Source: a virus. Taken from it: 64,000 nucleotides of DNA. A program made the position numbers and the translations under genes. Every line of letters starts with the position of its first letter. Within the stretch, counting starts at the first letter, position 1. This document shows, piece after piece, positions 2,802 to 52,036 of this stretch. Location: positions 2,527 to 66,526 of the IMG/VR virus record IMGVR_UViG_3300026557_000003, one strand, 5' to 3'. A model generated the notes under the pieces. It ran no database searches. It was given only the letters and a program-made list of their open reading frames with translations, and was not told the DNA's origin.

Positions 2802-3470
2802 CTACCAACGACTGTAGGGACATTTTCGCGAAGGCAGCCTGGGTATCCTCGCCGCAATTTCTGGATTCCACCCGGTTCGTATTCTATTTCGAAACATTTC
2901 GAAATCTTCCTCTCTAACGTTAAAACGCTTGGCCCATTCCCGCACTCTCAGTGATTCCCCCGCGAATGTAAACGTTTTGGGCGGATTTGTTTTACGCTTG
3001 GTGTTGGTACCACTTAAAATTTCATCAAGACTCTTTCCTCGCTGAATATTCGTCGCGACAACGCTCCTCTTGAGTCCATGTCGATCACACCATTCAGCTA
3101 AACACATCTTTTCGCCATTGCATTCTACGATTCGATTACTCCGTTTATTCCGTGCGTTCTGGGTTCTTGTGGCCCATCGTAAATTCATCGGCCAACCATT
3201 TTCAAGGCACTCTGAACACTGGCCGCAACTATAGTGCCCGTCATTGTCTTTTCTGTCGATCTGCATTGAAGGGTCTGGTCGAGGACCTACCGTAGAGTAA
3301 AAAGCGCCAGCGGAAGAGAGCAAGTAACCACATATCTTGATTCCCCGACCGCCGTAATCTTTCCATTGTGGTTGGCGCGGATTCAAGCACCGCGTCTTGA
3401 TGCGGTCCCAGGTTTTAAACTCGGGCGTACCACTCAATCCGTGAATCGTGTTAAAATGAAATTCAGCCAT
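2802..3470 (-). CDS. HNH-type homing endonuclease (HNH-1)
   Basis: WDRIKTRCLNP...YGGRGIKIC...IDRKDNDGHY...NLRWATRTQNARNK; AAAGGAG RBS before ATG 3470. Confidence 0.85.
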   Translation of the reverse strand: MAEFHFNTIHGLSGTPEFKTWDRIKTRCLNPRQPQWKDYGGRGIKICGYLLSSAGAFYSTVGPRPDPSMQIDRKDNDGHYSCGQCSECLENGWPMNLRWATRTQNARNKRSNRIVECNGEKMCLAEWCDRHGLKRSVVATNIQRGKSLDEILSGTNTKRKTNPPKTFTFAGESLRVREWAKRFNVREEDFEMFRNRIRTGWNPEIAARIPRLPSRKCPYSRW

Positions 3471-3475
3471 TGAGT

Positions 3476-3555
3476 AAATCTCCTTTACAGATTTATTGAA
3501 TTGGTAGATCGGCGGAAGGTGCTCAAACACCGCCGCCGATTGTCATATTGTATCA
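3476..3555 (-). promoter_or_regulatory. HNH-1 leader: extended -10, hairpin, CTACCA, RBS-occluding hairpin
   Basis: TGaTACAAT; ATCGGCGG/CCGCCGAT stem with TGTTTGAGCA loop; AAATCT-gtaaagg-AGATTT. Confidence 0.7.
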
Positions 3556-3576
3556 CGAATTTCGTTGCCTTATAAT
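3548..3576 (+). promoter_or_regulatory. sigma70-like promoter, back-to-back with the HNH-1 promoter
   Basis: TTGTAT-17 bp-TATAAT. Confidence 0.65.
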
Positions 3577-3582
3577 AGCTTT

Positions 3583-3870
3583 TTCCTGGAGATGCGGACT
3601 GCCTAACCGCACCCAGGCTGAGGGGCGAAAGCTATCACTCTCTGGGTTCGCTGAATTGGCGAGATAATATAGCGCCGGGAATTAAACTTAACCGCAACCT
3701 ATCTATTAAGACAGCCCTCGACGTTTTCTGCAGGGACCAACGCTAATGATTGCAACGCTTAGTTATTAACGTCGAGGCTGGTCCTTCGGTGTGCTATTAT
3801 CTCTCAGGGGCGTATTCGTCGATCTTAAGTGTACCCTCTAACTATGAACGCTGATGGAGCGCCCCGCAAT
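3583..3870 (+). ncRNA. Candidate structured RNA or long 5' leader
   Basis: Multiple stems (3611-3616/3642-3647, 3661-3669/3795-3803, 3712-3725/3768-3780, 3807-3812/3860-3865), GAAA tetraloop; no ORF of 60 aa or more; follows a promoter. Confidence 0.4.
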
Positions 3871-3890
3871 CAAACCCCAGCGAGGTATCG

Positions 3891-4076
3891 ATGGCTTCAA
3901 TTTCTGTCTTGGTCCTTGATTTCATTCTGTCGGTTATCGTGTTTTTCGGCGGTGGTTGGGCTATCTATAAACGCGCTCCCGATGGCGTAACTGTAAGTGC
4001 AAGTAACGTAGCCGCACTGATCCTGATGATCCTGCTGTTTTTGCAGGTAATGAAGATAATCCAGACTTGTGGTTAG
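3891..4076 (+). CDS. Small two-TM membrane protein
   Basis: Two hydrophobic segments; GAGGT RBS. Confidence 0.6.
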   Translation: MASISVLVLDFILSVIVFFGGGWAIYKRAPDGVTVSASNVAALILMILLFLQVMKIIQTCG

Positions 4077-4123
4077 CGAATTCTATTGAAATCACGCGCC
4101 AAATCGGGCAATATGGCGGCTGT

Positions 4124-4513
4124 ATGAGTAAATTTACCATCCACGCAACTTTCGAGGGCGAACACCCAAACGAGTTGCTTCACACTTTAAGCGGTCTGAA
4201 TGCACTGATGGAAATACCCTGTGCGCTTGACCGCCTCACAACTGCAGTTAACGAGACGAAGGAGATTCTTATGGCACTGTCACCAAATATTCAGAAGTTA
4301 GTTGACGCATCGACCGCATTGTCATCGGCGGTCAGTACTTTCCTGGCCAATCAGGGTGGTGCGACTGCAACGGCCGTTCAAGCTGCAATCGACGCAGAGG
4401 ACACTGATCCGGCAGTGGTGGACGCATTGACGAAACTACAAAACGACATCAAGATTCTTACGCCGGCAGTAGCAGCGACCACGGCGGCCGTTGCTCCAGT
4501 CCAGAACGGGTAA
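4124..4513 (+). CDS. Ala-rich helical hypothetical protein
   Basis: ATG 4124; second strong RBS (AAGGAG) before MALSP near 4270; followed by a terminator. Confidence 0.6.
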   Translation: MSKFTIHATFEGEHPNELLHTLSGLNALMEIPCALDRLTTAVNETKEILMALSPNIQKLVDASTALSSAVSTFLANQGGATATAVQAAIDAEDTDPAVVDALTKLQNDIKILTPAVAATTAAVAPVQNG

Positions 4514-4542
4514 CAAGTTCGTTCGTGAGGTAACTCCTGCTC

Positions 4543-4570
4543 GCCCCGCGATTTGCGGGGCTTTTTCTTT
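4543..4570 (+). terminator. Rho-independent terminator
   Basis: GCCCCGC-gattt-GCGGGGC followed by TTTTTCTTT. Confidence 0.85.
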
Positions 4571-4576
4571 GAACTG

Positions 4577-4652
4577 TGTTATAGTGCCGTCACGCGCGCG
4601 ATTCGAGTTGCTCCTGTTGACTAACTTTGCTATGAAAATCGAGTCGCGCGCG
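4577..4652 (+). promoter_or_regulatory. Extended -10 promoter plus 14-bp inverted repeat heading the packaging operon
   Basis: TGtTATAGT at 4577-4585; CGCGCGCGATTCGA (4593-4606) / TCGAGTCGCGCGCG (4639-4652). Confidence 0.5.
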
Positions 4653-4660
4653 GAAAATCT

Positions 4661-5308
4661 ATGGCAAATCCATTCACGGTCCATCTAAACGGAAGCGGAA
4701 AAGTCGCAACCGGCGCTACGGTCGCTCAAAAGGCGTTCATCGGTGAAGATTGCGTTGTACTTGACGCCTGTGAGGTCTACGGCGAGTCCGTAATCCGCAA
4801 GGGTAGTCAACTATCCGGTGCGTGCAGGGTCTTTGGCGGCGCAGATATTCAGAAATCGCGGCTACACGGCTCAGTGATTGTGGCCGGCGAGAAGGCTGCA
4901 GTTATAAATTCCCTCTTAATTGGCGATATCCTAGTCGCTGACAGTGCCTCGGTTCATAGCTGCGATTTGCGCTGTGGACCTGGGCAAATAATCAGAATCA
5001 CTGAAAACGCGCAACTGATGGGAGTTTTGATCTATGGACCGCTGACCGTCAAGGGTGATGCAAAGGTCAGCAATTGCGAGCTGTATCCGTCGACCGATAT
5101 CGTTGAAGGCGAATGGACGAGGCCGCCAAGGGTTGTGCGATCGGTATTCCAATTTAACCTAGTCGAATCAATCAACGATAGGATTGTCATCGGCTGTCAG
5201 GTTCACTCTCTTGATGTTTGGAAGAAACTCGATCCGAACCGATGGGCGCAATTAGGATTCTCACCTGAAGAACTAGCCGAATATTCAAGACTCATCAGCG
5301 AGTGGTAG
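4661..5308 (+). CDS. Left-handed beta-helix (hexapeptide-repeat) protein
   Basis: Repeating [IV]xGxxxV hexads; C-terminal IVIGCQVH motif. Confidence 0.7.
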   Translation: MANPFTVHLNGSGKVATGATVAQKAFIGEDCVVLDACEVYGESVIRKGSQLSGACRVFGGADIQKSRLHGSVIVAGEKAAVINSLLIGDILVADSASVHSCDLRCGPGQIIRITENAQLMGVLIYGPLTVKGDAKVSNCELYPSTDIVEGEWTRPPRVVRSVFQFNLVESINDRIVIGCQVHSLDVWKKLDPNRWAQLGFSPEELAEYSRLISEW

Positions 5309-7390
5309 ATGGCAACAGACGACCTTCGCTCCATTATCGTCGGCCTGGTCGACCAATTCAAGGCTGCGGATCAGGCTGTTGATCTCTACAAAAGCCTGGA
5401 ATCCCGCGAAAAAGGCGAAACCTATCTCAGCAGATTAGACGACGCGCTCGCCCGCTGTGCCAATTGTGAGATTCTTATTGATCTGGCGCAGTCAAAGATT
5501 CAACCGCTAATCGACCGCGCAACCAATGACATCGAGCGTCAGGCCCGAGAATATCAGCGTGATTTAATTGGCTGGCAGCTTCACAGGGCGGCCGAGAGTG
5601 CTCAAGAACGCATCGCTCATCTTGCGAGAATCGTCACCCCAGAAGATCAGGCGGCCGAAAAAGAACTCTGCAGAAAAGACACAAAATACTGGTTCAGATA
5701 TTACGCATGGTCAACCGACCCAAGACCCGATGCGCCGTTGTCGGTGATGCCGACCGTTCCGTTTCCGTTTCAGGATAACTACATCGATTGGTTGGAGTGC
5801 ACGACATTCGAAGAGCACTCATCCGGACTGGTTGAGAAATCCCGCGATATGGGAGCTACGGTGATCTGGATCGAATGGAACGTGAAACACTGGCTGTTTA
5901 CCGAAGGCTTTTCCTCGTTGCTATCATCGGCGACCGAAGATCTGGTCGACTCGAAGCAGGACCCAGATACCTTATTCGAAAAGACGCGGTTTCAGATTCG
6001 GATGCTTCCAAAATGGATGCTTCCGGTTGGTTTTGATCCAAACCGACATATGCCGTATATGAATATCGCGAATCCTGAGAATGGATCAGTTATCACGGGT
6101 CAAGCTCCCACTCAGAATATCGGTCGCCAACGTCGACGAACCGTCGCGCTCTGCGATGAATTCGCAAGCTGGCCGTTTGGCGGATACACGCAACATACAG
6201 CAATGTCTCAAACCGTCCGTTGTATGTTCAAGGTCTCATCAGTCAAAGGCAGGCTCAACAAATTCGCTGAAGAGCGTCACGCTGGTGGTACAAACGTTTT
6301 TACGATGGATTGGCGAGAACACCCTTGGAAAGATGATCGATGGTTCAACTCTCTCGATCACGGATACTGCGGTCCTCGAATGACGACGCAGGAAGTTGCG
6401 CAGGAGGTTTCCCGCGATTACGATGCCTCGCAGCCCGGCAAAGTTTTCACCAAGTACAATGAACTCCTGAACGTCGTCACCTGGAAAGAATTCGCGAGCG
6501 TCGCCGTTGGCGCAGTCAATCCAGACACTAATCTTTATCGAATCCCGACTAATTGGTTTTGTGGTCGGGGCCTTGACTGGGGAGCAACTGACGAGAATCA
6601 ACACCCAGCAGTATGTATCTGGATCGCCATCGCGGCTGAGAATGCACATCCATCAATTCGAGGCTGCATATTCGTCTATCGTGAACGGATGTGGAGCGGC
6701 GGCCCGACTGTCGGAGAAGTTGCCCGCGAGATTAAAACCGTCGAAGCCGTTGATCACGAGACCGAAAGGATGGTTCAAAAACGGATCAGTCACGAGCGAT
6801 CGACGGAACAAAACACGTTTCTGCGCGAACATCGAATGCCCTGGGAAAAATGGCAGACCACCGACAATTGGGGGCTGTCTGTCATTAATGAATTCCTCGA
6901 ACCTCGAAAATGGCAGCATCCGTTCAGAGCGGAGCTGTACGGTTCACCGCGTCTGTATCTGATTGTCGCTGATGATCAGGGTCAGATGGAAAAGGATCAT
7001 TCAGGACACGGTGCCGTCGTCGCTGCTCGCGATCAGGACGGACTAAAACGATTAAGAGCCGAGATGCCCGCGTATCACTATCCGACAACCGAAGCCGGTA
7101 AACCTGTCGGAAAGATGAAGCCTGAGAAGTTCTTCGATGATGCGGTCGATGCATTGCGCGGTGTTGCTGGTCACTTCTTCGGGCCAAGCAAAAAGCTATC
7201 TGATAACGAACGGATGGAGGCATCATTCCCTGAGCCTTTACGCGCCGAAACCCTGACCCGTGAAATCCGGGATGGCACAATCGAGGACCTGAACGTCAGG
7301 ATTATGCAGCGAATCGAAGCGCGCCAGAAATACAAAGAACAGAATACGGGGCGTCGTGGTATACTCGACCGCTATAGAGGTGGAAGATGA
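5309..7390 (+). CDS. terL: Terminase large subunit
   Basis: EKSRDMGAT (Walker A-like), ALCDEFA (Walker B), GLDWG and DDAVDALRG nuclease motifs; upstream of portal. Confidence 0.9.
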   Translation: MATDDLRSIIVGLVDQFKAADQAVDLYKSLESREKGETYLSRLDDALARCANCEILIDLAQSKIQPLIDRATNDIERQAREYQRDLIGWQLHRAAESAQERIAHLARIVTPEDQAAEKELCRKDTKYWFRYYAWSTDPRPDAPLSVMPTVPFPFQDNYIDWLECTTFEEHSSGLVEKSRDMGATVIWIEWNVKHWLFTEGFSSLLSSATEDLVDSKQDPDTLFEKTRFQIRMLPKWMLPVGFDPNRHMPYMNIANPENGSVITGQAPTQNIGRQRRRTVALCDEFASWPFGGYTQHTAMSQTVRCMFKVSSVKGRLNKFAEERHAGGTNVFTMDWREHPWKDDRWFNSLDHGYCGPRMTTQEVAQEVSRDYDASQPGKVFTKYNELLNVVTWKEFASVAVGAVNPDTNLYRIPTNWFCGRGLDWGATDENQHPAVCIWIAIAAENAHPSIRGCIFVYRERMWSGGPTVGEVAREIKTVEAVDHETERMVQKRISHERSTEQNTFLREHRMPWEKWQTTDNWGLSVINEFLEPRKWQHPFRAELYGSPRLYLIVADDQGQMEKDHSGHGAVVAARDQDGLKRLRAEMPAYHYPTTEAGKPVGKMKPEKFFDDAVDALRGVAGHFFGPSKKLSDNERMEASFPEPLRAETLTREIRDGTIEDLNVRIMQRIEARQKYKEQNTGRRGILDRYRGGR

Positions 7391-22568: not shown

Positions 22569-23144
22569 ATGTCCGAAGATTCGCAATTCGATATTCCGGA
22601 ATACATCAAGAAACGCTTTGAAGGCGACGAACTGAAGGCCGTGCAAGAGGAACAGGCGCGGTTGCGGTCGAGATATGGCTACGACGCCAATAGAATCCGG
22701 ACAATGAGCCGGGTTCAACGAGATTTTGAACACAATGAGCGGGAGGTCTTGCTTGCGTCGGAGATGCTTGGCGTTCTATTAAAGGAATCGCCTTTGCCAG
22801 AAGCTGAGATTACTTTTCAGCGACGCCGATTGTCGGAGGCGCTCTGGCGAACGGGAAAACTCGAAGAAGCTCTGATCGCCGCTGCGGACAAAGCGCAATT
22901 CGACAAGGTTCTAGCAATTAAGGCGGCGGTTGAATCGGACGATCTCGAAGTCTGCAACTGTGAGGACGCTAAACACAAGGGTCTAAATATCACACGATAC
23001 GCGACAAAGACCCATATCTTTTCACCGAAACACGGCAAGATAATGCCGATGAAGCAGTGCTCGATATGCGGCCATTTGAATTGCTGTGGGAATATTCCGG
23101 CTAGGCCAAAAGACTCAATCCTTCGCCAAGGAGTCGTTAGATAA
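22569..23144 (+). CDS. Hypothetical helical protein with C-terminal Cys cluster
   Basis: GGAGG RBS; CNC...CSICGHLNC. Confidence 0.65.
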
Positions 23145-23670
23145 CATGAGCCCAAGCCAATCTTCTTATAACTCTACTGATCACGCTGGCGTCCATTCCG
23201 ACTATGCCCGCGATGTCCACACATTTCATTCCGGTTGCCGCCATAGCTCTAACTTCTCGGACTTTTTCCGGACACAGTTTCGCCTGTGGAAGTGCGGTAC
23301 CCATGCCGCGTTTATGTCCCGGGAGGTCAAATGCCCCGCGTTTTTTCTTGGCGCAATCGACAGAATTATCTCTGGGCGTACCAAGAAAGAGATGCGCCGG
23401 GTTCACGCATCTAGGCACATCGCATCGGTGAAGAACGCAAAGAGAAGGCCAGCACTGATGTTCCAGAAAATACGAGAGACGACTTGCGATAACGCCTCGC
23501 CTACCAATCATCATGCCTCCGTATTCCATTCGACCAGAAATGCGTTTGGCACCGGTCCATCGCCAACAGTCGCCTTGCGGGCCATAGCCGGGTGTTTTGT
23601 CAACCTTTGCCCAAAATCTATCAATATGCTTTTCGGTTACGATGGGTTGTTGTATGTTAACAGCGGTCAT
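23137..23670 (-). CDS. HNH homing endonuclease (HNH-2)
   Basis: RFWAKVDK...CWRWTG...[28 protein letters not shown]-terminal HTH. Confidence 0.92.
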
Positions 23671-23793
23671 AGTGCGAATCTCCTTATTAGATTCCTGCCT
23701 TGGCTAGGACTGTTGAGGTATTTCCGTATCTCGGCAGTCCGTTTCTATTATAGACATTATCGTATTACCGTCAATCATTTAAGTGAGGTGTAA
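23146..23793 (+). CDS. Antisense bridging ORF spanning the HNH-2 cassette (candidate)
   Basis: AAGGAG RBS; ATG 2 nt after the upstream stop; its TAA abuts the TTG of the next gene. Confidence 0.4.
23671..23774 (-). promoter_or_regulatory. HNH-2 promoter and leader
   Basis: TTGACG-16-TATAAT; GGACTG/CAGTCC stem; CTAGCCA; GAATCT-aataagg-AGATTC. Confidence 0.7.
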
Positions 23794-27351: not shown

Positions 27352-27861
27352 TTAAATATGCGTCCAGTTTTCTCCGCGAAGAATATGTGCAATCTCACTT
27401 CTACTCAAATTGAATTTGATCGCAAGCTGGCGTCTCGACAGCAGGCCTCCAAGGCTACGTATTTCGCGCACCGCCTCTTCTGTTGTCTTTGCCATTCCAT
27501 GATTAGAACCTCTACGAAGTCTATTTCTAACTCTCGCGTCTTCTGCGTTCTCAGCCGCCGTTCCTTCGCGAAGATGATCTGGATTAACGCAATTTTTAAT
27601 ATCACAGCCATGGAGCACGTACAATTCAGGCCATTTATTGTAAGCAATGCGATAAGAAGCTACGTGCGCTCCTACCTGGACTTTTCGAAATTGAATCTTG
27701 CCGGGTTGAATCCCGGCCTTCATTTTTGGACGGCGATTGCCAGTTTTCCATTTCCAGCAAGTGCCCCACGGGCCGTATCCGGTGGACTTATCAACCTTTG
27801 TCCAGAAATAGTTAATATCCTTGTCGGTGAGTTGAAGGCGGTTTATATTATCAGTAGCCAT
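27352..27861 (-). CDS. HNH homing endonuclease (HNH-3)
   Basis: FWTKVDK...CWKW...VLHGCDIKNCVNPDHLREGTAAENAED. Confidence 0.92.
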   Translation of the reverse strand: MATDNINRLQLTDKDINYFWTKVDKSTGYGPWGTCWKWKTGNRRPKMKAGIQPGKIQFRKVQVGAHVASYRIAYNKWPELYVLHGCDIKNCVNPDHLREGTAAENAEDARVRNRLRRGSNHGMAKTTEEAVREIRSLGGLLSRRQLAIKFNLSRSEIAHILRGENWTHI

Positions 27862-27939
27862 TTCTTGAAATCTACCTTTCAATTTTGGTTAGAGGCTTCG
27901 GGTTGCAGAAACAACTCGGGGCCTCATCGTGCATTATAG
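27358..27939 (+). CDS. Antisense bridging ORF spanning the HNH-3 cassette (candidate)
   Basis: AAGGA RBS; ATG 11 nt after the upstream stop; TAG 18 nt before the next start. Confidence 0.4.
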   Translation: MRPVFSAKNMCNLTSTQIEFDRKLASRQQASKATYFAHRLFCCLCHSMIRTSTKSISNSRVFCVLSRRSFAKMIWINAIFNITAMEHVQFRPFIVSNAIRSYVRSYLDFSKLNLAGLNPGLHFWTAIASFPFPASAPRAVSGGLINLCPEIVNILVGELKAVYIISSHFLKSTFQFWLEASGCRNNSGPHRAL

Positions 27940-27941
27940 CA
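27865..27941 (-). promoter_or_regulatory. HNH-3 promoter and leader
   Basis: TGcTATAAT; GAGGC/GCCTC stem with TGTTTCTGCA loop; CTAACCA; TTGAAA-ggtaga-TTTCAA. Confidence 0.7.
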
Positions 27942-27956
27942 CGGAAGGAGTGTATT

Positions 27957-28550
27957 TTGGGCTCGGGCAATGATCAAGCAAAACAATTAGCGAACAAAGC
28001 CGATACTTCATCGGTAACGACGCTTGACAACTCGACCTTTAATCCGCTTGCCAAAGCTGGAATTGACAGGGCTGGCACTGATCTTCAGAATATTCAGGCC
28101 GGTAAGTTCGGGAGCCTGCCACTTGTTCAGGCGGTCAATCAGGCGGCGAACAGGTTGAAATCGTGGAATCCGGCCCCAATGGGTGATGCTGCGCTGGCCG
28201 CCGGTGCGAGCGGGCAAGGTGGGTATGCGACCGCAGAGGACTCCTATCGTCGGAGATTACAGGACCGGGCCGTTAGCGACCTGATGCCACAGGCGGTGGA
28301 GGCTGAGCGGAATTATTCGAGTTCCATATTATACCCTGGGGCGCAGGGTGAATCGGCTTATGATTTAGCCAAGGCTGCTGGCTACGCGGGCGCGGGAGGC
28401 CAAGCTGCAAATTTGTACAATCTGGAATCGAATAACGGGTTCTGGAATCATCTGACGAACTCACTTGGCCAGAGTCTCGGCCAAAGTCTTGGCGGCGTCA
28501 GTGGTAGCTACAATAGCGGAAACGGCCAGTTCACGGGTGGCTTTGGTTAA
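27957..28550 (+). CDS. Ejection/pilot-like protein (P22 gp7-like)
   Basis: GGAAGGAG RBS with TTG; Gly/Ala/Asn-rich, GQSLGQSLGG C-terminus. Confidence 0.6.
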   Translation: MGSGNDQAKQLANKADTSSVTTLDNSTFNPLAKAGIDRAGTDLQNIQAGKFGSLPLVQAVNQAANRLKSWNPAPMGDAALAAGASGQGGYATAEDSYRRRLQDRAVSDLMPQAVEAERNYSSSILYPGAQGESAYDLAKAAGYAGAGGQAANLYNLESNNGFWNHLTNSLGQSLGQSLGGVSGSYNSGNGQFTGGFG

Positions 28551-29254
28551 AGAATATGCTTCCACGTTTCACGTCTAACAACATTTCGGATGGTGGCGGG
28601 GCTTACACCGTATCGCTTCCCCTGTGCGTAAAGAGAGCATATCGCTGCGTTCTGGCGTATCTCTCTAACATCCTTTTCAGTCAGACGCGCAAAGCAATGC
28701 AATTCGCCCCTCGCTGGCCTTTGCTGGCTTGCTGCATTGGTGGCGTCTTCGACATGTTTCCAGGTCTGACATTTAATGATCCTCTTTGCAGTACAGGCTG
28801 CAACGCTGAACCTACGACCTATTTCTTCGTAACTCAATCGCGGAAAAAGCGAACGAAGTTCTGTTATTTCGACCTCTGTAAGTGTTGTGTTGTAATTATC
28901 TTCTCCCCGTATCCCGCGGCCCTTCGCTGCCATATCAGCACTATTCTCAGCGTTCGTGCCCTTGAAAAGGTGTGCGGGATTAACGCAGGAACGGTTATCG
29001 CAGTGATGGCAAACGAGCAATTTTGGCCATTCGTGAAAATGAACCATAAAGGAGAATCGGTGGGCTCCTACTATTCTCCTTGGAATGCCTCGTTGTATGA
29101 TCGCCAGACTTCCGTATCCTTGATTGCCAATAGTGCCAGTCCACGACCAGCAATCTCCGTCAGGACCAAAACCCGGCGTTTTGTCAACTCTTTCCCAGAA
29201 CATTTTAAGATGCTTGTCGGTAAACACCGGTGGGTTTATATTAGTCGAAGCCAT
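28547..29254 (-). CDS. HNH homing endonuclease (HNH-4)
   Basis: FWERVDK...CWSWTG...[27 protein letters not shown]; duplicated C-terminal HTH. Confidence 0.92.
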   Translation of the reverse strand: MASTNINPPVFTDKHLKMFWERVDKTPGFGPDGDCWSWTGTIGNQGYGSLAIIQRGIPRRIVGAHRFSFMVHFHEWPKLLVCHHCDNRSCVNPAHLFKGTNAENSADMAAKGRGIRGEDNYNTTLTEVEITELRSLFPRLSYEEIGRRFSVAACTAKRIIKCQTWKHVEDATNAASQQRPARGELHCFARLTEKDVREIRQNAAICSLYAQGKRYGVSPATIRNVVRRETWKHIL

Positions 29255-29332
29255 ATTCTGAATCACCTTTCAGTTTGTTGGTTAGAGCCGCTGCGGACAT
29301 TTAGCGTGTCCGCGCGGCTTGCTGTATTTTAA
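28556..29332 (+). CDS. Antisense bridging ORF spanning the HNH-4 cassette (candidate)
   Basis: ATG 6 nt after the upstream stop; TAA 15 nt before the next start; weak RBS. Confidence 0.4.
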   Translation: MLPRFTSNNISDGGGAYTVSLPLCVKRAYRCVLAYLSNILFSQTRKAMQFAPRWPLLACCIGGVFDMFPGLTFNDPLCSTGCNAEPTTYFFVTQSRKKRTKFCYFDLCKCCVVIIFSPYPAALRCHISTILSVRALEKVCGINAGTVIAVMANEQFWPFVKMNHKGESVGSYYSPWNASLYDRQTSVSLIANSASPRPAISVRTKTRRFVNSFPEHFKMLVGKHRWVYISRSHILNHLSVCWLEPLRTFSVSARLAVF

Positions 29333-29334
29333 CA
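29258..29334 (-). promoter_or_regulatory. HNH-4 promoter and leader
   Basis: TGtTAAAAT; AGCCGC-GCGGACA stem with CGCTAAA loop; CTAACCA; CTGAA-aggtga-TTCAG. Confidence 0.7.
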
Positions 29335-31280: not shown

Positions 31281-33385
31281 TGCGTTTTGCAAGTTTAATT
31301 CTCAAGCGAATCATATTTCTATCTATTCTCCTTTTCGTCGCATCTATTCTTGCGATGGCGCAGCCATATAATGGAACACTTCATGGGACGCCGGTTTTTG
31401 GCCCGGCCAAGTTTAGCAACGGTCTAACATCTGTCACCGATGCGAATTACCTATCGCTGCCATCTGGCGTATTCAATTTCAGTTCGTCCAGTAGTTGGGC
31501 GCTTGAGGCATGGTTAAAAACAACGGGTTCGTCCACTGGCGTAGCTATAGCGTCTGGCTCACTTGGCGATATTGCACCGGGCCAGCCGTCTTTTTGGTTC
31601 GGTACTTCGGGCGGTAATTTCGTTTTAAATATCACCGGAAGCGGGGCATTTACAGGGACTCTTGACAGTGGAATCGCCATCAACGATGGGGCTTTCCATC
31701 ATTGTGCAATATCGGTGAACGGGGGAACGACTATCAAATTGTACGTCGACGGGGTCCTGGGAAATACTTTCACCGGCGTAGTGACCACTATGGTTCACAC
31801 AAATGGATTGATTGGACGGTATACAGTGACTTCATTCGCCTGGAATAGCGCGATAGATGAAATCGCTGTCTGGGGTTCAAATAAATATCCCGTGGCCTTC
31901 ACTCCACCATCAAGTCCATACGTCGGAACAGAATCTAATCTGATCGCACTTTATCATCTTCAGGCAAATGGGGTTGATTCGTCTACGCCTCCTGGGATTT
32001 CCGCGTCACCAAATCAGATCGTTATCAGTACCACAGGAAATTCTGTGGTTTTGACCGGTATTACGACTACATGGACGCCTGGCACACCGGGGACACCTAC
32101 GTTTACATTGTCTGGTGGTACAGGTGCGTCCATTACAGCCCAGACAATAGCGAGCGGAACCAGTGCCACATTAACAATAACGGCCGGAAGTGCGCTCGGA
32201 GTTTTGACGATTACAGACCCAAGCACCGGATTTACCACAACCGTTACGGTTGTTTCAACTCCGTCAACCTCCACAATTCCAATGAGCGATCCCGGAATCA
32301 TATTTAGTCCGTACAACTGGAATGTCACGGGTGGAACTGCGAATACAGTCAATCCAGGTGCGTATTTTAGGACGATATTCAACGGTACGCAGGTATCGCT
32401 AAACTTCACGACCAGTGCGGATTCGTCACCTTATCCTCAATTATGGGCACGGGTCGATAACCAATATTGGCAACAGATCGTACTGACGGCCGGTAATCCA
32501 CAAGTCCTGATAACGTCAAGTCTTCAGAACCGGAAGCATCTCGTGGAAGTTGTGGTCAAATCAACTTCCTATAGTGGCGTTGACAGGTGGAGTGGACCGC
32601 AAACCATAGTTACGGTCACGGGAATCGTCGTTGATTATCTTACAACTCTCTCGCTACCGATTCGCAAAACCAAGAATATTCTGATATACGGAGATTCCAT
32701 TACCGAAGGATTGTTGAGCAAGAATAACACTGCCTCGGGTCAGCCAGATCAAAGCGATATCCTTGGTTGCTATTCCTATGCGCTATCGACTGCCGTGGAC
32801 GCTGAGGTTGGCATTGTGGCATTCGGGGGAACGGGGCTGCTTACCAGTTTTGCAGGCGTGCCAGCCCTGACATCTTCTTACAATCTAATTTACAACGGGG
32901 CATCGAGAGTTTTTACGCCCGCGCCTGATTTGGTGATTTACAATGAGGGCACAAATGACGGCTCAAGTATCGTCACTGCTTACGGCACGGTTGTTAGTGC
33001 GATTCTCGCTGCGGCTCCGAACGCGAAACAGTTACTTCTTATTCCATTCAACAATAGCCACGCCTCTGACATTGCGACCGTTGTAACCAATGCGGGAAAT
33101 CCAAAGGTCACATCACAGTCGACCGTGGGCTGGTTTAACTCGTCAGATTCAAGCGACGGTTTGCACCCCTACGATTATTCGCACGTCGGCCTAATTGCTC
33201 CGAAACTGTTTCCGGTTGTGATGGCGCTTCTTTATCCGTCGACCTGTTTAAACCGCGTGCGAACAATTAGGATTATCGCCGAATTGACGCTACCAAGAGG
33301 GCACGGCCGTGTTTTTCAGGGTAACCCACGAATCCCAGACTGCCAATGCTTTATCGTTGGCACGGTGGATCCGGTTACGTGGTAG
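31280..33385 (+). CDS. LamG/concanavalin-like plus SGNH (GDSL) hydrolase protein with signal-peptide-like N-terminus
   Basis: ALEAWLK...DGAFHHCA...LYVDG...IDEIAVW (LamG); GDSITEG, GGTG, EGTND, DGLHP (SGNH blocks). Confidence 0.85.
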   Translation: MRFASLILKRIIFLSILLFVASILAMAQPYNGTLHGTPVFGPAKFSNGLTSVTDANYLSLPSGVFNFSSSSSWALEAWLKTTGSSTGVAIASGSLGDIAPGQPSFWFGTSGGNFVLNITGSGAFTGTLDSGIAINDGAFHHCAISVNGGTTIKLYVDGVLGNTFTGVVTTMVHTNGLIGRYTVTSFAWNSAIDEIAVWGSNKYPVAFTPPSSPYVGTESNLIALYHLQANGVDSSTPPGISASPNQIVISTTGNSVVLTGITTTWTPGTPGTPTFTLSGGTGASITAQTIASGTSATLTITAGSALGVLTITDPSTGFTTTVTVVSTPSTSTIPMSDPGIIFSPYNWNVTGGTANTVNPGAYFRTIFNGTQVSLNFTTSADSSPYPQLWARVDNQYWQQIVLTAGNPQVLITSSLQNRKHLVEVVVKSTSYSGVDRWSGPQTIVTVTGIVVDYLTTLSLPIRKTKNILIYGDSITEGLLSKNNTASGQPDQSDILGCYSYALSTAVDAEVGIVAFGGTGLLTSFAGVPALTSSYNLIYNGASRVFTPAPDLVIYNEGTNDGSSIVTAYGTVVSAILAAAPNAKQLLLIPFNNSHASDIATVVTNAGNPKVTSQSTVGWFNSSDSSDGLHPYDYSHVGLIAPKLFPVVMALLYPSTCLNRVRTIRIIAELTLPRGHGRVFQGNPRIPDCQCFIVGTVDPVTW

Positions 33386-33419
33386 AATCTGGCGTCCGAA
33401 CTCAACCAAGGGAGTATCT

Positions 33420-33791
33420 ATGAAACGATTGATTGGGATGATAATCCTCTGTGTGATGGCGGGAATACCACTGTGTTTCTTACAGAATCATCTTGTGAAG
33501 GCGCAAGCACAGACAAAGGACATTGCGACCGATAAAAAACCGGCCGCCGTGACGCCGTTCACAATAGAGGAAAGCTATGTGTTGACCGACTCTGAGAAAA
33601 CGAAACTCGCACAGGACAGGATCATCGATGAACTGAACGACAAATTGGCAGTCGCAGTGTTCACGAGGAAGGCCGCAATTAATCAGTTCAACGAGATCGC
33701 TGCGAAATATCCTGGCGAGGTATTTACCAAATCGAAGAACGGTTTATACGAAGGCCACCGCCCGCCGACAGAAGCCGAAAAAGGTAAGTAA
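33420..33791 (+). CDS. Secreted/membrane-anchored coiled-coil protein
   Basis: AAGGGAG RBS; MKRLIGMIILCVMAG...VKA|Q. Confidence 0.65.
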   Translation: MKRLIGMIILCVMAGIPLCFLQNHLVKAQAQTKDIATDKKPAAVTPFTIEESYVLTDSEKTKLAQDRIIDELNDKLAVAVFTRKAAINQFNEIAAKYPGEVFTKSKNGLYEGHRPPTEAEKGK

Positions 33792-45903: not shown

Positions 45904-45919
45904 TTTTAAGGAGCAACCA

Positions 45920-47059: not shown

Positions 47060-47072
47060 CGAGATTCGTAAG

Positions 47073-47296
47073 GGCGCAGCAGTAGTCCCTGTCGCTGTGG
47101 TACGTCGCCTTTGGGCGTAGAGCAAGGCCAAAGTAGGAGTCGGGCAACCGATATACCGAGAAGGTCTCAGGGATGAACACGAGTGTGAAGCGCTGCAAGG
47201 CAAACGCCGCTGATGCCCACCATAAATGAAATGGCGTGACTTTGCCGGTGGGAGAGAAACCGGCCTAATGTTGAGGGTCAACGGAAAGGCGCAGCA
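47073..47296 (+). ncRNA. Candidate structured RNA
   Basis: 237-nt non-coding gap with nested stems, GCAA tetraloop and alternative pairing; GGCGCAGCA at both ends. Confidence 0.4.
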
Positions 47297-47977
47297 ATGA
47301 ATTTTAATCCACACGAACAAGACTCTGAAACTCAAATCGCAATGGCAGAAGCTAGAAAGACAATGCTAAAGACGAACAAAATTACTGTTTTCGATATTGA
47401 GATTATCAAAGCAATTCCTGACCGCAATCAGGAGAATGACCCGACTATTAAATATTGCGGCGGCTGGCAGGATCACGCCGGAATGGGTATCTCAGTTATC
47501 GGAGCATATTCATACGCAGATGACCGTTATCGGGTTTTCCTCAAAGACAACTTTGGGCTATTCGAGGACCTGTTGCACGAATCAGATATTGTTGTGAGCT
47601 TCAACGGTCTAGCATTCGATAACCGCGTATTGGAAGCCTGTGGCATCAACCCGCCAGACGCGACAACCTACGATCTGTTGGTCGAAACCTGGGCTGCCGC
47701 TGGACTCGCGCCGAAGTTCAATTATAAGACACACGGCGGCTTTGGTCTTGACGCCGTATGTTCTGCGAATTTCGATCTGAACAAGACTGGACACGGCGCA
47801 CTTGCCCCCGTCCAATGGCAACAAGGCAAATACGGACACGTCATTGATTACTGTCTCGAAGACGTAAGATTAACCAAAAAACTGTTCGACCTGGCCACGG
47901 CGGGGCCAATCAAGAACCCGAAATCCGCAATTGGTGGAAGTTATTTGATGTTGCGGGATCCATTTATCGTGAAATGA
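47297..47977 (+). CDS. DEDD/RNase H-like 3'-5' exonuclease
   Basis: VFDIE, SFNGLAFD, YDL, LDAV, YCLEDVRLT. Confidence 0.85.
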   Translation: MNFNPHEQDSETQIAMAEARKTMLKTNKITVFDIEIIKAIPDRNQENDPTIKYCGGWQDHAGMGISVIGAYSYADDRYRVFLKDNFGLFEDLLHESDIVVSFNGLAFDNRVLEACGINPPDATTYDLLVETWAAAGLAPKFNYKTHGGFGLDAVCSANFDLNKTGHGALAPVQWQQGKYGHVIDYCLEDVRLTKKLFDLATAGPIKNPKSAIGGSYLMLRDPFIVK

Positions 47978-47996
47978 TCGATTATATGCTTACTTA

Positions 47997-48080
47997 TGCT
48001 AGAATAAGGTCGAGTCGAAAAGACGTTACCAGCGCCCTTTCGACTCTCACCTATACCACTCGTAACATAAGGAGCACGAG
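47997..48080 (+). promoter_or_regulatory. HNH-5 promoter and leader
   Basis: TGcTAGAAT; GAGTCGAAA/TTTCGACTC stem with CGTTACCAGCG loop; CTCACC; CTCGT-aacataaggagc-ACGAG. Confidence 0.7.
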
Positions 48081-48084
48081 CAAT

Positions 48085-48657
48085 ATGGCTGTCGATAAAT
48101 ATACCATACTCGCCAATCTACCATCTTCCGTGGTTGATCGTTTCTGGAAAAAGGTCGATAAACAGAATGGACCGATCCTTATGCACTGTTCTCGTCTCGG
48201 CCGTTGCTGGCAGTGGTTCGGAGACAGGAATCAGGGCGGCTACGGTAGTATGAGGCTTGGTTCTTCTTCTTGGGCGGCACGTGCCCGTGCGCATATTATT
48301 TCATGTGCCATCGACAGAAACGGAATACCAGAAGGCTCTCTGGTCCTGCATAAATGTGATAACCCCTCATGCGTAAGGCCTAGTCATTTATGGCCCGGCT
48401 CGCAACGCGAAAACGTGGCAGACATGATGGCAAAGAAGCGGGACCGCCGCCCTGGTTCCAGATCAGGCGTTGCTGTGAATTATTCTCGCGGCGAGGATCG
48501 TCACAATGCTCATTGCACGGAAGCGATCGTGCTGGCCATGCGAGCGGATTATATTCCCGGCGTTTTTGGCTGCAACAAGATAGCAAAAAAATATAACGTA
48601 GTATGCCGAGATGTCGTTGCTCGTATTATCAGGAGAGAAATATGGAAGCATATTTAG
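48085..48657 (+). CDS. HNH homing endonuclease (HNH-5)
   Basis: RFWKKVDK...CWQW...VLHKCDNPSCVRPSHLWPGSQRENVAD; TAAGGAG RBS. Confidence 0.92.
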   Translation: MAVDKYTILANLPSSVVDRFWKKVDKQNGPILMHCSRLGRCWQWFGDRNQGGYGSMRLGSSSWAARARAHIISCAIDRNGIPEGSLVLHKCDNPSCVRPSHLWPGSQRENVADMMAKKRDRRPGSRSGVAVNYSRGEDRHNAHCTEAIVLAMRADYIPGVFGCNKIAKKYNVVCRDVVARIIRREIWKHI

Positions 48658-48813
48658 ACGCACGTCTACTACGCCGTCACCATTCCACCGGGGCACGACG
48701 CTAAGGCAGATCGAATCCGCGCGCTAGGAATGGTGCAGATATTCAGGTGCGAGCGCGTGGCGAAGGTCAGGGATGTTGACCGGGAGTTACACCGGATGGT
48801 TCGTCGAGGTTGA
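48658..48813 (+). pseudogene. Probable remnant of a 52-aa gene whose start codon (47974) was separated by the HNH-5 cassette
   Basis: Removing 47977-48657 restores ATG ACG CAC... with an ATGA overlap on the exonuclease stop. Confidence 0.4.
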
Positions 48814-48816
48814 TAT

Positions 48817-48903
48817 GGCACGGGTGGCTGTAATGTAACAGTGTCGCGGTGCACCTTAAAAACAGGAGCGGAAATCTCAGTTCGAGTCTGAGCCCGTGCC
48901 CCA
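48817..48903 (+). tRNA. tRNA-like gene with canonical acceptor, D and T arms but an aberrant enlarged anticodon arm
   Basis: GCACGGG/CCCGTGC acceptor, G-1:C73, encoded CCA, CTCAG-TTCGAGT-CTGAG T arm, GCTG/CAGT D stem. Confidence 0.7.
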
Positions 48904-48919
48904 AAAGGAACGGATAAAT

Positions 48920-49123
48920 ATGCCTGAGTCACGGCGCGAAGATGAGTACATGGAGTAGTTCGGCGACGATGAAGAACACGGCGATCCTTTCTGTTATACC
49001 TGCTACGGACGCGGATTTGTAGTTAGATGCGTCGATGATATTTGCCACGGCAGCGACGAAGGCTGCATTCACGGCGACGGAAATGTACCGTGCCCGGACT
49101 GTAGCAGGAGGGAATGGGATTAA
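48920..49123 (+). pseudogene. DnaJ-like zinc-finger mini-protein interrupted by an in-frame TAG (48956)
   Basis: MPESRREDEYME*FGDDEEHGDPFCYTCYGRG...CPDC; AAGGA RBS; TAATG coupling to the next gene. Confidence 0.5.
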
Positions 49124-49950
49124 TGGCTGAAACGAAAATCGAATGGGCGACATATACATTTAATCCGTGGTTGGGTTGTACCAAGGTGTCACCCGCCTGC
49201 ACGCATTGCTATGCCGAATCGTGGGCAAAACGGAGCGGGCTGGTTCAGTGGGGTGATAATCCAAGGCGCAAAACAACAGATCAATATTGGCGTCAGCCTT
49301 TGAAATGGAACGAGTTGGCTAAAAGTGCGACTGTGAGGCCACGTGTTTTCTGCGCATCATTAGCTGACGTATTTGAGACAAATGAAGAGGTCGCCCCTTG
49401 GCGCAAAGAGTTTTTCAATCTGATTAGTAAGACTCCGAACCTTGATTGGCTTCTACTAACAAAGCGCCCTGAAAATATTCGCGCAATGCTACCGAATGAT
49501 TGGGGTATGGGGTATCCGAATATCTGGCTTGGTGCGACAGTTGAGAATCAGGAATATGCAGATAAGCGAATTCCGAACTTATTAGAGATCGACGCAAAAG
49601 TTTACTTTGTTTCCTGTGAGCCCCTATTGGGCGAGTTGAATTTAGAGCAATATCTTTATAATCGCTACCAGATGGGTGGAGCGCGACCGATGTATAATCA
49701 GGTCAATTGGGTTATTTGTGGTGGTGAGAGCGGTCCTGGCGCACGCCCGATGCACCCGGCTTGGGCTCGGTCACTCCAAGCTCAATGCGAGGCCGCTACT
49801 GTTCCTTTCCATTTTAAGCAATGGGGCGAATTTAGCCCGAACGTCTTAGGTATTAACGATTCGGTCCCACCTTCGAGAATAGGCAAGAAAGCTGCGGGCC
49901 GAATACTCGACGGTCGAACGTGGGATGAATTGCCAGCGGTAGCCAAATGA
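49123..49950 (+). CDS. DUF5131 / phage Gp37-Gp68 family protein (radical-SAM-like)
   Basis: TKIEW...WLGCTKVSPACTHCYAE, LLTKRPEN, FVSCEPLLG, WVICGGESG. Confidence 0.9.
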   Translation: MAETKIEWATYTFNPWLGCTKVSPACTHCYAESWAKRSGLVQWGDNPRRKTTDQYWRQPLKWNELAKSATVRPRVFCASLADVFETNEEVAPWRKEFFNLISKTPNLDWLLLTKRPENIRAMLPNDWGMGYPNIWLGATVENQEYADKRIPNLLEIDAKVYFVSCEPLLGELNLEQYLYNRYQMGGARPMYNQVNWVICGGESGPGARPMHPAWARSLQAQCEAATVPFHFKQWGEFSPNVLGINDSVPPSRIGKKAAGRILDGRTWDELPAVAK

Positions 49951-50240
49951 TCACAATCCTACTCGCTCTTATCGCCATCGCCGCAATCTTCAAAATCAGG
50001 AAGGTACTTTGCCGCGATACCCGAATGAGCAGCACCACGGCCCAATGGATCGACGAAGATTGTGAGCCATTATGAATCCTGTAACGAGTCAATGGAAACC
50101 GCCACGCTGGTCGCCATTTCGTCAGATTCGCGATTGGTTTGATAGGCGAACGATCAATAAGGCGCTGTCACGCCCTAGGCCGCATCGTGATTATGGCAAC
50201 GCGCCTTTTGAAGTGCCGGTGCTAACACAGGAGAAGATCG

Positions 50241-50642
50241 ATGCCCGATAATAAACCCACAACCGAAGTCTCGATTACCAATGACGCGGCCGAATGGCTG
50301 GAGTCGAGGAACGAACTGGTGGTTAGTCAACTGGACGCTGCCGATCTTGCCGATTGTTTTTACGATTCGCAGCCTATACTTGACGGGCTAACCGCTGCAT
50401 ATAAACGTGGCCGGGATGATGCGAATGCGCTGACCGCCAAGGACGCAAAAGAGAAAGATCGGGAAGTCAGCCAGATGGCGGCTCAGGTGCAGGAACTAAA
50501 GGCCACGCTTGACACGATGAAATACTGGATGGCTATCGACAAATGCGACTGTGATACCGAGCGCAAGGACGGCCACACGGTTAGAATGGACTACCCCAAA
50601 TCGCTTGAACTGGATTGGCATCTCGAAGATTGCTATTATTAA
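50241..50642 (+). CDS. Hypothetical protein
   Basis: AGGAG RBS. Confidence 0.6.
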   Translation: MPDNKPTTEVSITNDAAEWLESRNELVVSQLDAADLADCFYDSQPILDGLTAAYKRGRDDANALTAKDAKEKDREVSQMAAQVQELKATLDTMKYWMAIDKCDCDTERKDGHTVRMDYPKSLELDWHLEDCYY

Positions 50643-50809
50643 TACCGCCTGATGCAGTTGAACGCAGGGTGAAACGATGATCAAATGGCTCATCTGCTAC
50701 TTTTTCCATCGCGAATATTGGCGATATTCTCCCCGGTGGATGGACACGGTTGACTATGGCTGCCACAAGCCCGGATGCGGGCGTAGGTGGGAAAAGAAAG
50801 TAGGCTAAA

Positions 50810-51217
50810 GTGGGCTGGACCGATCAGGAATTCGAAGATTTCCGCGCGAAGTCGAAATTGTTTGCCAGCGCCAAGCCCCCAAAGCGCGGCCATAGATCGA
50901 AGGAAAAGGAAACCCTCGGGCGATACCTAATGACCCATGGAACGACCTGGGCGCTCGAACATCGATTTCACCCCGTCCGGCTGTGGCGATTTGACTGGGC
51001 GATTACTTCGTTGAAGATCGCTGTTGAGTTTGAGGGTGGTGTATTCATTCCCAAGGGTGGCGGCCATACAAAAGGAATGGATTACTCGAAAGATTGTGAG
51101 AAATACTCAGAAGCAGCAATTCTCGGCTGGCTGGTCGTTAGATGTACAGCGCCGATGATTCGAAGCGGGCTGGCGTTTGACTTGATCGAGCGGGCTATTA
51201 AGGCCAGACAGAAGTAA
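50810..51217 (+). CDS. DUF559/Vsr-like endonuclease
   Basis: HRFHPVRLWRFDWA...IAVEFEGG...KDCEKYSEAAILGWLVVR. Confidence 0.8.
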   Translation: MGWTDQEFEDFRAKSKLFASAKPPKRGHRSKEKETLGRYLMTHGTTWALEHRFHPVRLWRFDWAITSLKIAVEFEGGVFIPKGGGHTKGMDYSKDCEKYSEAAILGWLVVRCTAPMIRSGLAFDLIERAIKARQK

Positions 51218-51307
51218 TCCCGCGTGTAGATCAACTGAGCACGGCAACCCCGCGCGGGCCGCGATCTGCTTCTGAGGGAGATAACTAATTGATTTTATGG
51301 ACATTTA

Positions 51308-51393
51308 TGTTAACATGGATGCGAATCAGGGAGATGTTTTGAGCGTCTCCCTGGCTCTAATCAAATCGACGAACCTGTAAGGAGATTCGCATC
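51308..51393 (+). promoter_or_regulatory. HNH-6 promoter and leader
   Basis: TGtTAACAT; CAGGGAGA/TCTCCCTG stem with TGTTTTGAGCG loop; CTCTAATCA; GATGCGAATC/GATTCGCATC pairing over the RBS region. Confidence 0.7.
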
Positions 51394-51394
51394 A

Positions 51395-52036
51395 ATGACT
51401 GAGAACAAATCTAACATAATTCCTGAGGAACAAGAAGAGTGGCGATGGGTCAAGGGTTTTGAAGGTAGATATGAAGTTTCGAATATGGGGCACGTCAGAT
51501 CATACGTGAAACATGGATACGGGATTGATCTTTCTCCTGTGCCGATGCGTATTCTTTGTGGTGGCCTCACTAGTGGGTATATTCAGGTTGATTTGTCAAA
51601 GGGTGATCGAGTACGTCACCCTTTTCGCATACATGTTCTAGTTGCTGCTGCTTTTCTAGGGGATTGTCCCGATAGGCATCAGGTCAATCATAAAAATTGG
51701 AATAAGACGGACAATCGCCTCGATAATCTTGAGTATCTTACATCCCAGGGCAACACCTTGCATAGTAGGCCGCGAAGAAGAGGCCAGTGTGGAACACGGA
51801 TCGGAAGCGCAAAACTAAAAGAGAGCGATATTCCGGTCATTAAGTCGCTACGTGCTCAAGGTTTTACGTATAAAATGATCGGTGATCGGTTCTTGGTATC
51901 AGAATCAGCAATTGGCCATATTGTTTTAGGCCGCCACTGGAAGCACGTACGAGAAGATGGCAAAATAGTTCTTCCCACTGGGCGTACCGTCCGGGGAGAA
52001 AGTCGCGCGAAGAAACCGGAAGCGAGGGTAGCTTGA
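51395..52036 (+). CDS. NUMOD4-HNH homing endonuclease (HNH-6)
   Basis: EEWRWVKGFEGRYEVSNMGHVRS (NUMOD4); HVLVAAAF...VNHKNWNKTDNRLDNLEY. Confidence 0.92.
   Translation: MTENKSNIIPEEQEEWRWVKGFEGRYEVSNMGHVRSYVKHGYGIDLSPVPMRILCGGLTSGYIQVDLSKGDRVRHPFRIHVLVAAAFLGDCPDRHQVNHKNWNKTDNRLDNLEYLTSQGNTLHSRPRRRGQCGTRIGSAKLKESDIPVIKSLRAQGFTYKMIGDRFLVSESAIGHIVLGRHWKHVREDGKIVLPTGRTVRGESRAKKPEARVA

Follow-up and report, generated by a model that had tools for sequence, protein, structure and literature searches.

Each of the six free-standing HNH homing-endonuclease genes of a phage recorded in IMG/VR appears to have its own self-limiting cassette of about 110 bp, in which two sigma-70 promoters face each other and a cis-antisense RNA would serve as a brake on the nuclease; we put the probability of this reading at about 0.58. 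The stretch analysed, hereafter the window, comprises 64 kb of the 69,197-bp virus record IMGVR_UViG_3300026557_000003 (estimated completeness 99%) and contains all six HNH genes counted in the whole genome. Homing endonucleases cut DNA and need to be held at low levels, and little is known about how free-standing ones are controlled outside T4. An earlier note on this DNA had reported one common order of elements upstream of the six genes and had taken it for a shared cis-regulatory or mobility module. We found all six leaders with this order exactly where the note had placed them, and a shared unit is indeed present at the 5' end of 6/6 genes, but the picture of a sense-strand leader omits two features, a convergent -10-like element in codons 4-6 and a fold of the opposite strand.

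The genes are HNH1 (2802-3470, minus strand, 222 aa, phrog_3377 HNH endonuclease), the HNH_3 family members HNH2 (23137-23670, minus strand, 177 aa), HNH3 (27352-27861, minus strand, 169 aa), HNH4 (28547-29254, minus strand, 235 aa) and HNH5 (48085-48657, plus strand, 190 aa), and HNH6 (51395-52036, plus strand, 213 aa), which combines NUMOD4 with HNH_3. They fall into three subfamilies. The earlier statement that the genes belong to different subfamilies holds for HNH1, which is in a separate PHROG family, and for HNH6, whereas HNH2 to HNH5 are paralogs with 30-38% mutual identity, which HNH6 resembles in its C-terminal half only. The C-terminal DNA-binding domain of HNH4 is duplicated, with two copies of a helix-turn-helix-like module at residues ~120-168 and ~189-235.

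Read along the mRNA, all six leaders (L1-L6, the 5' regions of HNH1-HNH6) consist of a sigma-70-type promoter, a strong hairpin (hairpin 1), a mostly G-free and C/A-rich box, a weak hairpin with the Shine-Dalgarno (SD) sequence, and the ATG; together with the start of the gene this control unit measures about 110 bp. Cassette 1 (HNH1; 3449-3555, minus strand) has its extended -10 element TGATACAAT at 3547-3555, hairpin 1 at 3508-3540, the box CTACCAATT at 3499-3507, the SD hairpin at 3476-3494 and the ATG at 3468-3470. The corresponding elements of cassette 2 (HNH2; 23653-23774, minus strand) are TTGACG (23769-23774) with TATAAT (23747-23752), hairpin 1 (23707-23740), the box TAGCCAAGG (23698-23706), the SD hairpin (23676-23694) and the ATG (23668-23670). 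Cassette 3 (HNH3; 27821-27941, minus strand) is made up of the extended -10 element TGCTATAAT (27933-27941), hairpin 1 (27892-27925), the box TAACCAAAA (27883-27891), the SD hairpin (27865-27882) and the ATG (27859-27861), and cassette 4 (HNH4; 29214-29334, minus strand) of TGTTAAAAT (29326-29334), hairpin 1 (29286-29319), the box CTAACCAACA (29276-29285), the SD hairpin (29258-29273) and the ATG (29252-29254). On the plus strand, cassette 5 (HNH5; 47997-48106) begins with the extended -10 element TGCTAGAAT at 47997-48005, followed by hairpin 1 at 48012-48046, the box TCACCTATACCA at 48047-48058, the SD hairpin at 48059-48080 and the ATG at 48085-48087, and in cassette 6 (HNH6; 51308-51416) the same order is given by TGTTAACAT at 51308-51316, hairpin 1 at 51323-51357, the box TAATCAAATC at 51358-51367, the SD hairpin at 51371-51388 and the ATG at 51395-51397.

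The geometry of these elements is fixed. The sense promoter is an extended -10 of the form TGnTAnnnT in five leaders and TTGACG-16-TATAAT in L2, exactly as the earlier note had it, and hairpin 1 begins 6, 6, 7, 6, 6 and 6 nt past the -10 hexamer in L1 to L6, i.e. at the predicted +1; transcript starts are predicted throughout from the position of the -10, and the promoter rules of the host may differ. When the 113 TGnTAnnnT sites of the genome were ranked by the hairpin found at an offset of 5-8, the best four were HNH leaders and the fifth leader was in the top nine, and hairpins reaching -13 kcal occurred at 9 of these sites against about 2.6 expected. Folding z-scores of the leaders range from -1.9 to -4.6. 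The claim that pairing is kept while the stems differ was borne out as well: in a model-fitted alignment of the six leaders 11 of 14 stem pairs are altered on both sides, a score reached by none of 500 shuffles, and pairing falls from 70% to about 40% when the stem partners are slid in the same alignment. Stem sequences are completely different and continuous identity is small, with longest common strings of 9-14 nt.

Other parts of the earlier description apply to a subset of the leaders. The loops of hairpin 1 are alike only among L1, L3 and L6 and not in L2, L4 and L5. The box is exact (CTCTAA[CT]CAA) only in L3, L4 and L6 and degenerate in L1, L2 and L5, and it is no free-standing element but pairs with the start-codon region as one side of a helix; the linker is without G in 5/6 leaders. 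The second hairpin over the SD is real but weak, the whole tail amounting to -3.3 to -6.6 kcal. A pseudoknot between the loop of hairpin 1 and the box was rejected, as duplex energies were no better than with shuffled linkers, and a role of hairpin 1 as plus-strand terminator was likewise dropped, a simple terminator scan being passed by L2 alone. Among the short common strings are a 10-mer in L3 and L4 and a 14-mer, TAAGGAGATTCGCA, located at the ribosome-binding site of L2 (23676-23689) and L6 (51378-51391) despite their different protein subfamilies. If the antisense RNAs predicted for L2 and L6 are real, they could cross-react through this 14-mer.

The second promoter lies within the coding sequence. 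On the opposite strand of 6/6 HNH genes we found a -10-like hexamer in codons 4-6, placed 9-10 nt before the complement of the ATG and directed into the leader. By -10 matrix scoring the best hexamers of HNH1 to HNH6 are TAAAAT, TATGTT, TATATT, TATATT, TATATT and TAGATT; three are extended by TG and another two are preceded by TTGTCG at a spacing of 17 nt, so that 5/6 have TG or a -35. They are located on the plus strand at 3449-3457 in cassette 1 (extended -10 TGTTAAAAT), at 23653-23658 in cassette 2 (TATGTT, the weakest of the six) and at 27821-27849 and 29214-29242 in cassettes 3 and 4 (both TTGTCG-17-TATATT), and on the minus strand at 48106-48098 in cassette 5 (extended -10 TGGTATATT) and 51416-51408 in cassette 6 (extended -10 TGTTAGATT). 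A score of at least 7 was obtained for 5/6 HNH genes, compared with 1/59 of the other phage genes (Mann-Whitney p 9e-5), and composition-preserving shuffles of the first 33 coding bases of each gene yielded a combined p of 4e-7, or 3e-6 when HNH4 was excluded. The hexamer, AATATA on the coding strand, is read in a different codon phase in HNH5 (K-Y-T) than in its paralogs HNH3 and HNH4 (N-I), which points to a constraint on the DNA and not on the protein. Its spacing to the start codon is constant whatever the orientation of the gene in the genome. The predicted start of transcription from this element is near codon 2, and sense and antisense transcripts would overlap by 70-80 nt, spanning the whole leader. 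An opposite-strand promoter in the first codons that faces the ribosome-binding site, as would be expected for cis-antisense control, is thus predicted from the sequence in all six cases.

The fold of the leader is biased towards the same strand. The hairpins pair better opposite the HNH strand in L2, L3, L4 and L5, and over the whole overlap the antisense strand is the better folder in 6/6 cases, with energies for antisense vs sense of -31.9 vs -26.4 kcal in L1, -32.8 vs -17.7 in L2, -31.0 vs -22.8 in L3, -35.3 vs -27.9 in L4, -35.6 vs -21.3 in L5 and -25.0 vs -24.8 in L6 (sums -191.6 vs -140.9 kcal). These folds contain 28 G.U pairs on the antisense and 7 on the sense strand. Since dinucleotide-shuffle z-scores also favour the antisense strand (mean -5.3, range -3.0 to -6.3, vs -3.2 for sense; paired t p 0.0035), the bias is not due to composition alone, and the start regions of the other 59 phage genes show a small bias in the opposite direction (+1.8 kcal, p 2.7e-4).

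All six putative antisense RNAs are predicted to adopt one shape, a 5' hairpin and a 3' hairpin separated by 1-2 free bases. The 5' hairpin has a basal helix formed by the complements of the start-codon region (AGCCA, GGUCA, AGUCA) and of the CTAACCA box (UGGUU, UGGCU, UGAUU), and its apical loop displays an anti-SD (CCUU), the loop of the SD hairpin being turned into an anti-SD loop. The 3' hairpin corresponds to the complementary strand of hairpin 1. On a MAFFT alignment that was not fitted to it, 90% of the basal helix is paired. In L6 a C-G pair of this helix is replaced by U-A through a compensatory change, the box reading AAUCA instead of AACCA and the start region AUGACU instead of AUGGCU, and one pair of the helix is G.U in 5/6 cases, where the mRNA would have a C.A mismatch. 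Conservation of the box is therefore explained by its pairing and covariation with the start-codon region, without a protein. A stable and conserved antisense structure, as cis-antisense control would require, was found in 6/6 folds. On the plus strand the RNAs are predicted at 3464-3540 (RNA 1, with a start placed to within +/-2 nt and an undefined 3' end, made up of the 5' hairpin with its anti-SD loop and the 3' hairpin), 23665-23740 (RNA 2, with 15 continuous pairs in the 3' hairpin, then GUUUCUAUUAU), 27856-27926 (RNA 3) and 29249-29319 (RNA 4), and on the minus strand at 48012-48091 (RNA 5) and 51323-51401 (RNA 6, with the smallest strand asymmetry of the six).

From this arrangement we infer that both promoters fire, that the RNAs have approximately these ends and that repression results. 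The outer promoter would give rise to a nuclease mRNA that starts at the base of hairpin 1, continues through the mostly G-free linker and holds the SD in a weak hairpin, while the inner promoter, on the other strand in codons 4-6, would produce a small cis-antisense RNA that begins at about codon 2 and complements the start codon, the SD and the leader over its full length. Its 3' hairpin may act as a stabiliser or weak terminator and, as it adjoins the mRNA promoter, may shield this promoter from incoming antisense transcription. The two RNAs would pair loop to loop and then as a full duplex, blocking ribosome binding; RNase III might be recruited by the duplex and promoter collision may contribute, with the outcome that a potentially harmful nuclease is kept low. 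Hairpin 1 may additionally stabilise the 5' end of the mRNA and the G-free linker may aid ribosome loading. The total divergence of the stems would fit two needs, namely to avoid recombination between the repeats and to keep each antisense RNA specific to its own mRNA.

By analogy the cassette is best read as a cis-antisense brake on homing endonucleases of the IS10 RNA-OUT or IS200 art200 type. A precedent is provided by both insertion sequences, in which the antisense RNAs begin in the first transposase codons and span the ribosome-binding site (PMC5006887, PMC4513863). RNA-OUT of IS10, 69 nt in length, complements RNA-IN over its translation initiation region and extends back into the promoter pIN (PMC5006887). 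IS10/Tn10 RNA-IN/RNA-OUT and the HNH cassettes thus have in common convergent promoters at the 5' end of the gene for a mobile-element enzyme and a structured antisense RNA of about 70 nt that is directed against the translation initiation region and runs back into the mRNA promoter. They differ in that IS10 controls the transposase of a bacterial insertion sequence with a 35-nt overlap, the mRNA 5' end pairing with the loop of a single long stem, whereas for the phage homing endonucleases the sequence predicts an overlap of 70-80 nt, two hairpins and an anti-SD loop facing an SD loop. IS200 tnpA/art200 (PMC4513863) likewise sequesters the SD in a hairpin of the 5' untranslated region and has a further strong hairpin adjoining the mRNA start, but this hairpin is located upstream of the start and is a bidirectional terminator, while the HNH hairpin is at +1 inside the mRNA, and there is no sequence similarity. 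The I-TevI-type leaders of T-even phages (PMC2988022) also combine a phage homing-endonuclease gene, an own promoter and a translation-limiting hairpin at the ribosome-binding site. There, however, a stable hairpin occludes the SD and an embedded late promoter frees the site, whereas the HNH cassettes have a weak SD hairpin, sigma-70-type promoters and a conserved fold of the strand opposite the gene; with tails of only -3.3 to -6.6 kcal and a sigma-70-type promoter upstream of both hairpins, they do not match a T4-type leader. A search of a collection of papers found no description of antisense control of phage homing endonucleases. Jumping genes are known to be controlled in this way, and the cassettes would extend such control to phage HNH genes.

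We also searched for the cassette outside the window. The window DNA derives from a soil metagenome, the sole sequencing run that contains it, and no RNA run with this DNA was listed. No near relative of the phage was found in a search of a phage collection and no relatives of HNH1 were found when searched for; the nearest large terminases are 38-47% identical and occur in 2 viral contigs, which have almost no other genes in common with the window phage and in which no HNH_3 gene was found. The external set comprised 149 HNH loci, 80 IMG/VR loci with HNH_3 homologs and 69 others. A covariance model of the six leaders (model R2) matches just these six leaders in the window and nothing in the 80 + 69 external loci, so that the leaders do not represent one sequence family common to phages. 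Of the metagenome, 21 pattern hits were at chance level by the same model, and a stricter pattern had 0 hits in viral contigs. A relationship to c4 or other Rfam families, also raised earlier, was not supported: covariance models of Rfam including c4 gave no gathering-score match over the window and only chance-level matches near the HNH genes (E up to 5), and no match by E-value thresholds at eight external loci.

Simply asking for any strong hairpin upstream did not separate HNH from other genes in the external loci. The full descriptor of -10, hairpin, C/A-rich linker and SD, in contrast, applied to 6/50 HNH genes vs 2/340 others (p 8e-5). In 16 external leaders whose sequence is unrelated to L1-L6 the antisense strand folds better in 15/16 cases, with 48 vs 11 G.U pairs (Wilcoxon p 6e-4), compared with a mean of +1.5 kcal at control gene starts in these loci, and the predicted shape is that seen in the window, with the complement of the start codon pairing with that of the linker, an anti-SD loop and, last, the 3' hairpin. 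Of 17 external leaders, 7 have an antisense -10 within the first codons, compared with about 3% of control genes, and external hairpins often begin 13-16 nt past the -10 rather than at +1. As a sequence family the cassette was thus found only in this phage, while its architecture, as far as it can be predicted, recurs with unrelated sequences. We consider it about an even bet that a portable two-promoter cassette is common among the homing-endonuclease genes of phages and also accompanies some other accessory genes with their own promoter, in each case encoding a cis-antisense RNA of two hairpins directed at the ribosome-binding site of the gene. This would be a general and so far undescribed brake that arose as, or diversified into, many unrelated sequence families, the one in the window being of sigma-70 type. 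If true, such a compact sense/antisense cassette would explain how a homing gene lands harmlessly anywhere in a phage genome and in either orientation, and would extend the logic of IS10 and IS200 from transposons to phage homing genes. It would also provide a signature for annotators seeking small phage RNAs and, with six copies in one genome and non-cross-reacting stems, a natural set of orthogonal 110-bp parts for limiting expression.

Several observations weigh against the antisense brake. HNH2 has a weak antisense hexamer (score 5.0, shuffle p 0.11), and all promoter elements were scored by the rules of sigma-70, which may not be those of the host. No canonical U-run follows the 3' hairpins, L2 and L4 being partial exceptions, and hence the 3' ends are undefined. 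In L6 the overall strand bias is almost nil and hairpin 1 folds better on the mRNA strand. HNH2 to HNH5 being paralogous, the six cases are not fully independent. Finally, the inner promoters of HNH1-4 also face downstream plus-strand genes and could serve those instead. This last possibility can be put more generally: an outward promoter with a structured 5' leader on the plus strand might restore expression of downstream phage genes after insertion against the virion operon. The next plus-strand genes start at 3891, 23794, ~27960 and 29347, and a stop-free plus-strand frame bridges HNH2-4, as selection for a working operon would produce. HNH5 and HNH6, on the other hand, are co-oriented with their neighbours and yet have the same inner promoter, aimed backward into upstream genes, and the distance to the HNH start codon stays constant (9-10 nt) in any genome orientation, so that service to the neighbours seems to us quite improbable.

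A rather unlikely explanation, in our view, is that all functions reside on the sense strand and the antisense features are by-products. Hairpin 1 would then keep RppH and RNase E off the mRNA, the C/A-rich linker with its lack of G would be a ribosome standby site or enhancer, and the weak SD hairpin would tune translation. RppH and RNase E need single-stranded 5' ends, so 5' secondary structure stabilises mRNA (PMC3997798), and with hairpin 1 starting 6-7 nt past the -10 in 6/6 leaders the predicted start site gives an mRNA without unpaired 5' end. Translation is reportedly promoted by unstructured tails and ACA motifs (PMC5934652, PMC3879156); the linker, G-free in 5/6, avoids pairing with the loop, and a comparable set of promoter, +1 hairpin and C/A-rich linker precedes the non-HNH gene that starts at 3891. 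The stabilisers of ompA and papA (PMC3997798) are similar in having a stem-loop at the extreme 5' end, a single-stranded stretch and a second hairpin near the SD, but they lack both a partner antisense promoter and a bias of the fold towards the complementary strand. What sense-strand functions leave unexplained is the fixed antisense -10 in every HNH gene, the fact that mismatches of the mRNA hairpins are of the C.A type, for which the antisense strand has G.U (28 vs 7), and the lower composition-corrected z-scores of the antisense strand; moreover, external hairpins are often located 13-16 nt past the -10 and not at +1. Sense-strand roles are compatible with the antisense brake, and by themselves they account neither for the antisense promoter nor for the strand bias.

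Two further explanations concern the repeats as such. The mobility module proposed in the earlier note could correspond to PeSL-like units, in which repeated promoters with stem-loops are sites for the exchange of gene cassettes. PeSLs (PMC2839356, PMC4122927) are small, portable, strong sigma-70-like promoters with a stem-loop before accessory genes of T4-type phages, and the HNH cassettes are tightly bounded from stop codon to promoter, have their own promoter, are accompanied by no HNH_3 gene in the two phages with a distantly related large terminase, and have the 14-mer of L2/L6 and the 10-mer of L3/L4 in common. PeSLs, however, are recombination sites conserved in sequence over ~100 bp, and their stem-loops lie between -35 and -10 or over the -10 and terminate upstream transcription (PMC2839356), whereas here the hairpin follows the -10, stems are wholly different and continuous identity, at most 9-14 nt, is too short for homologous recombination. 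The cassettes do not match PeSLs in these respects, the idea of a mobility module is unsupported, and we give a recombination function little credence. The least credence is given to hairpin and box as a protein-binding RNA site, either for antitermination of the rrn/lambda boxB-boxA kind or as an operator for the nuclease or a phage regulator. In rrn leaders a boxA-type sequence follows a hairpin; GGCUCUAA resembles boxA GCUCUUUA, L3, L4 and L6 read G(G/C)CUCUAA(C/U)CAA directly after the hairpin, and the loops of L1, L3 and L6 are similar. But the boxA-like string (GCUCUUUAACAA-like) is present in 3/6 leaders only, being absent from L1, L2 and L5, and its 5' part is paired in the stem; Rfam gave no hits, and the covariation of the box with the start-codon region explains its conservation without a protein.

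A different leader hairpin was noticed in the external loci. Of the external leaders with the order -10, hairpin, C/A-rich linker and SD, 11, which precede HNH_3 genes in unrelated IMG/VR contigs, have a hairpin whose lower stem is separated by a bulged C from an upper stem of 4 bp (GNNG/CNNC) with a loop of 6-8 nt; GUGGC and a C/A-rich tract follow. The covariation score of this family is 0.365 vs 0.131 when shuffled, it has no match in Rfam, and a covariance model built from it (model R1) has no match in the window. The sites are located in external loci L022 (601-642, 2808-2847 and 3981-4019), L028 (2936-2973), L030 (2919-2962), L033 (2622-2662 and 6021-6063), L036 (2932-2969), L053 (2902-2942), L078 (2923-2965) and L020 (2912-2958). 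In whole-contig searches the bulged-C hairpin was also found before a RadC-like gene (L112) and a gene for a small secreted protein (L114).

Within the window, a scan for classical -35/-10 promoters yielded no excess of sites over shuffled sequence. Of the few good host-type promoters, about 10 in number, 6 drive HNH genes. The non-HNH gene at 3891-4076 (plus strand) encodes a small membrane protein, and its leader (3792-3890) contains TGCTATTAT, 6 nt, a long hairpin GGGGCG...CGCCCC, GCAATCAAACCCC and an SD; it resembles the sense leaders of the HNH genes but escapes model R2. Another leader, at 33380-33422 (plus strand), runs from an extended -10 TGGTAGAAT through CTCAACCAA and GGGAG to the ATG of a gene whose 123-aa product has an N-terminus resembling a signal peptide; it contains a box-like tract and lacks hairpin 1. 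One opposite-strand frame is free of stop codons in each of HNH2, HNH3 and HNH4, the genes inserted against the plus-strand virion operon, compared with 5-10 stops in each opposite-strand frame of HNH1, HNH5 and HNH6. The stop-free plus-strand frames across HNH2-4 perhaps avoid polarity.

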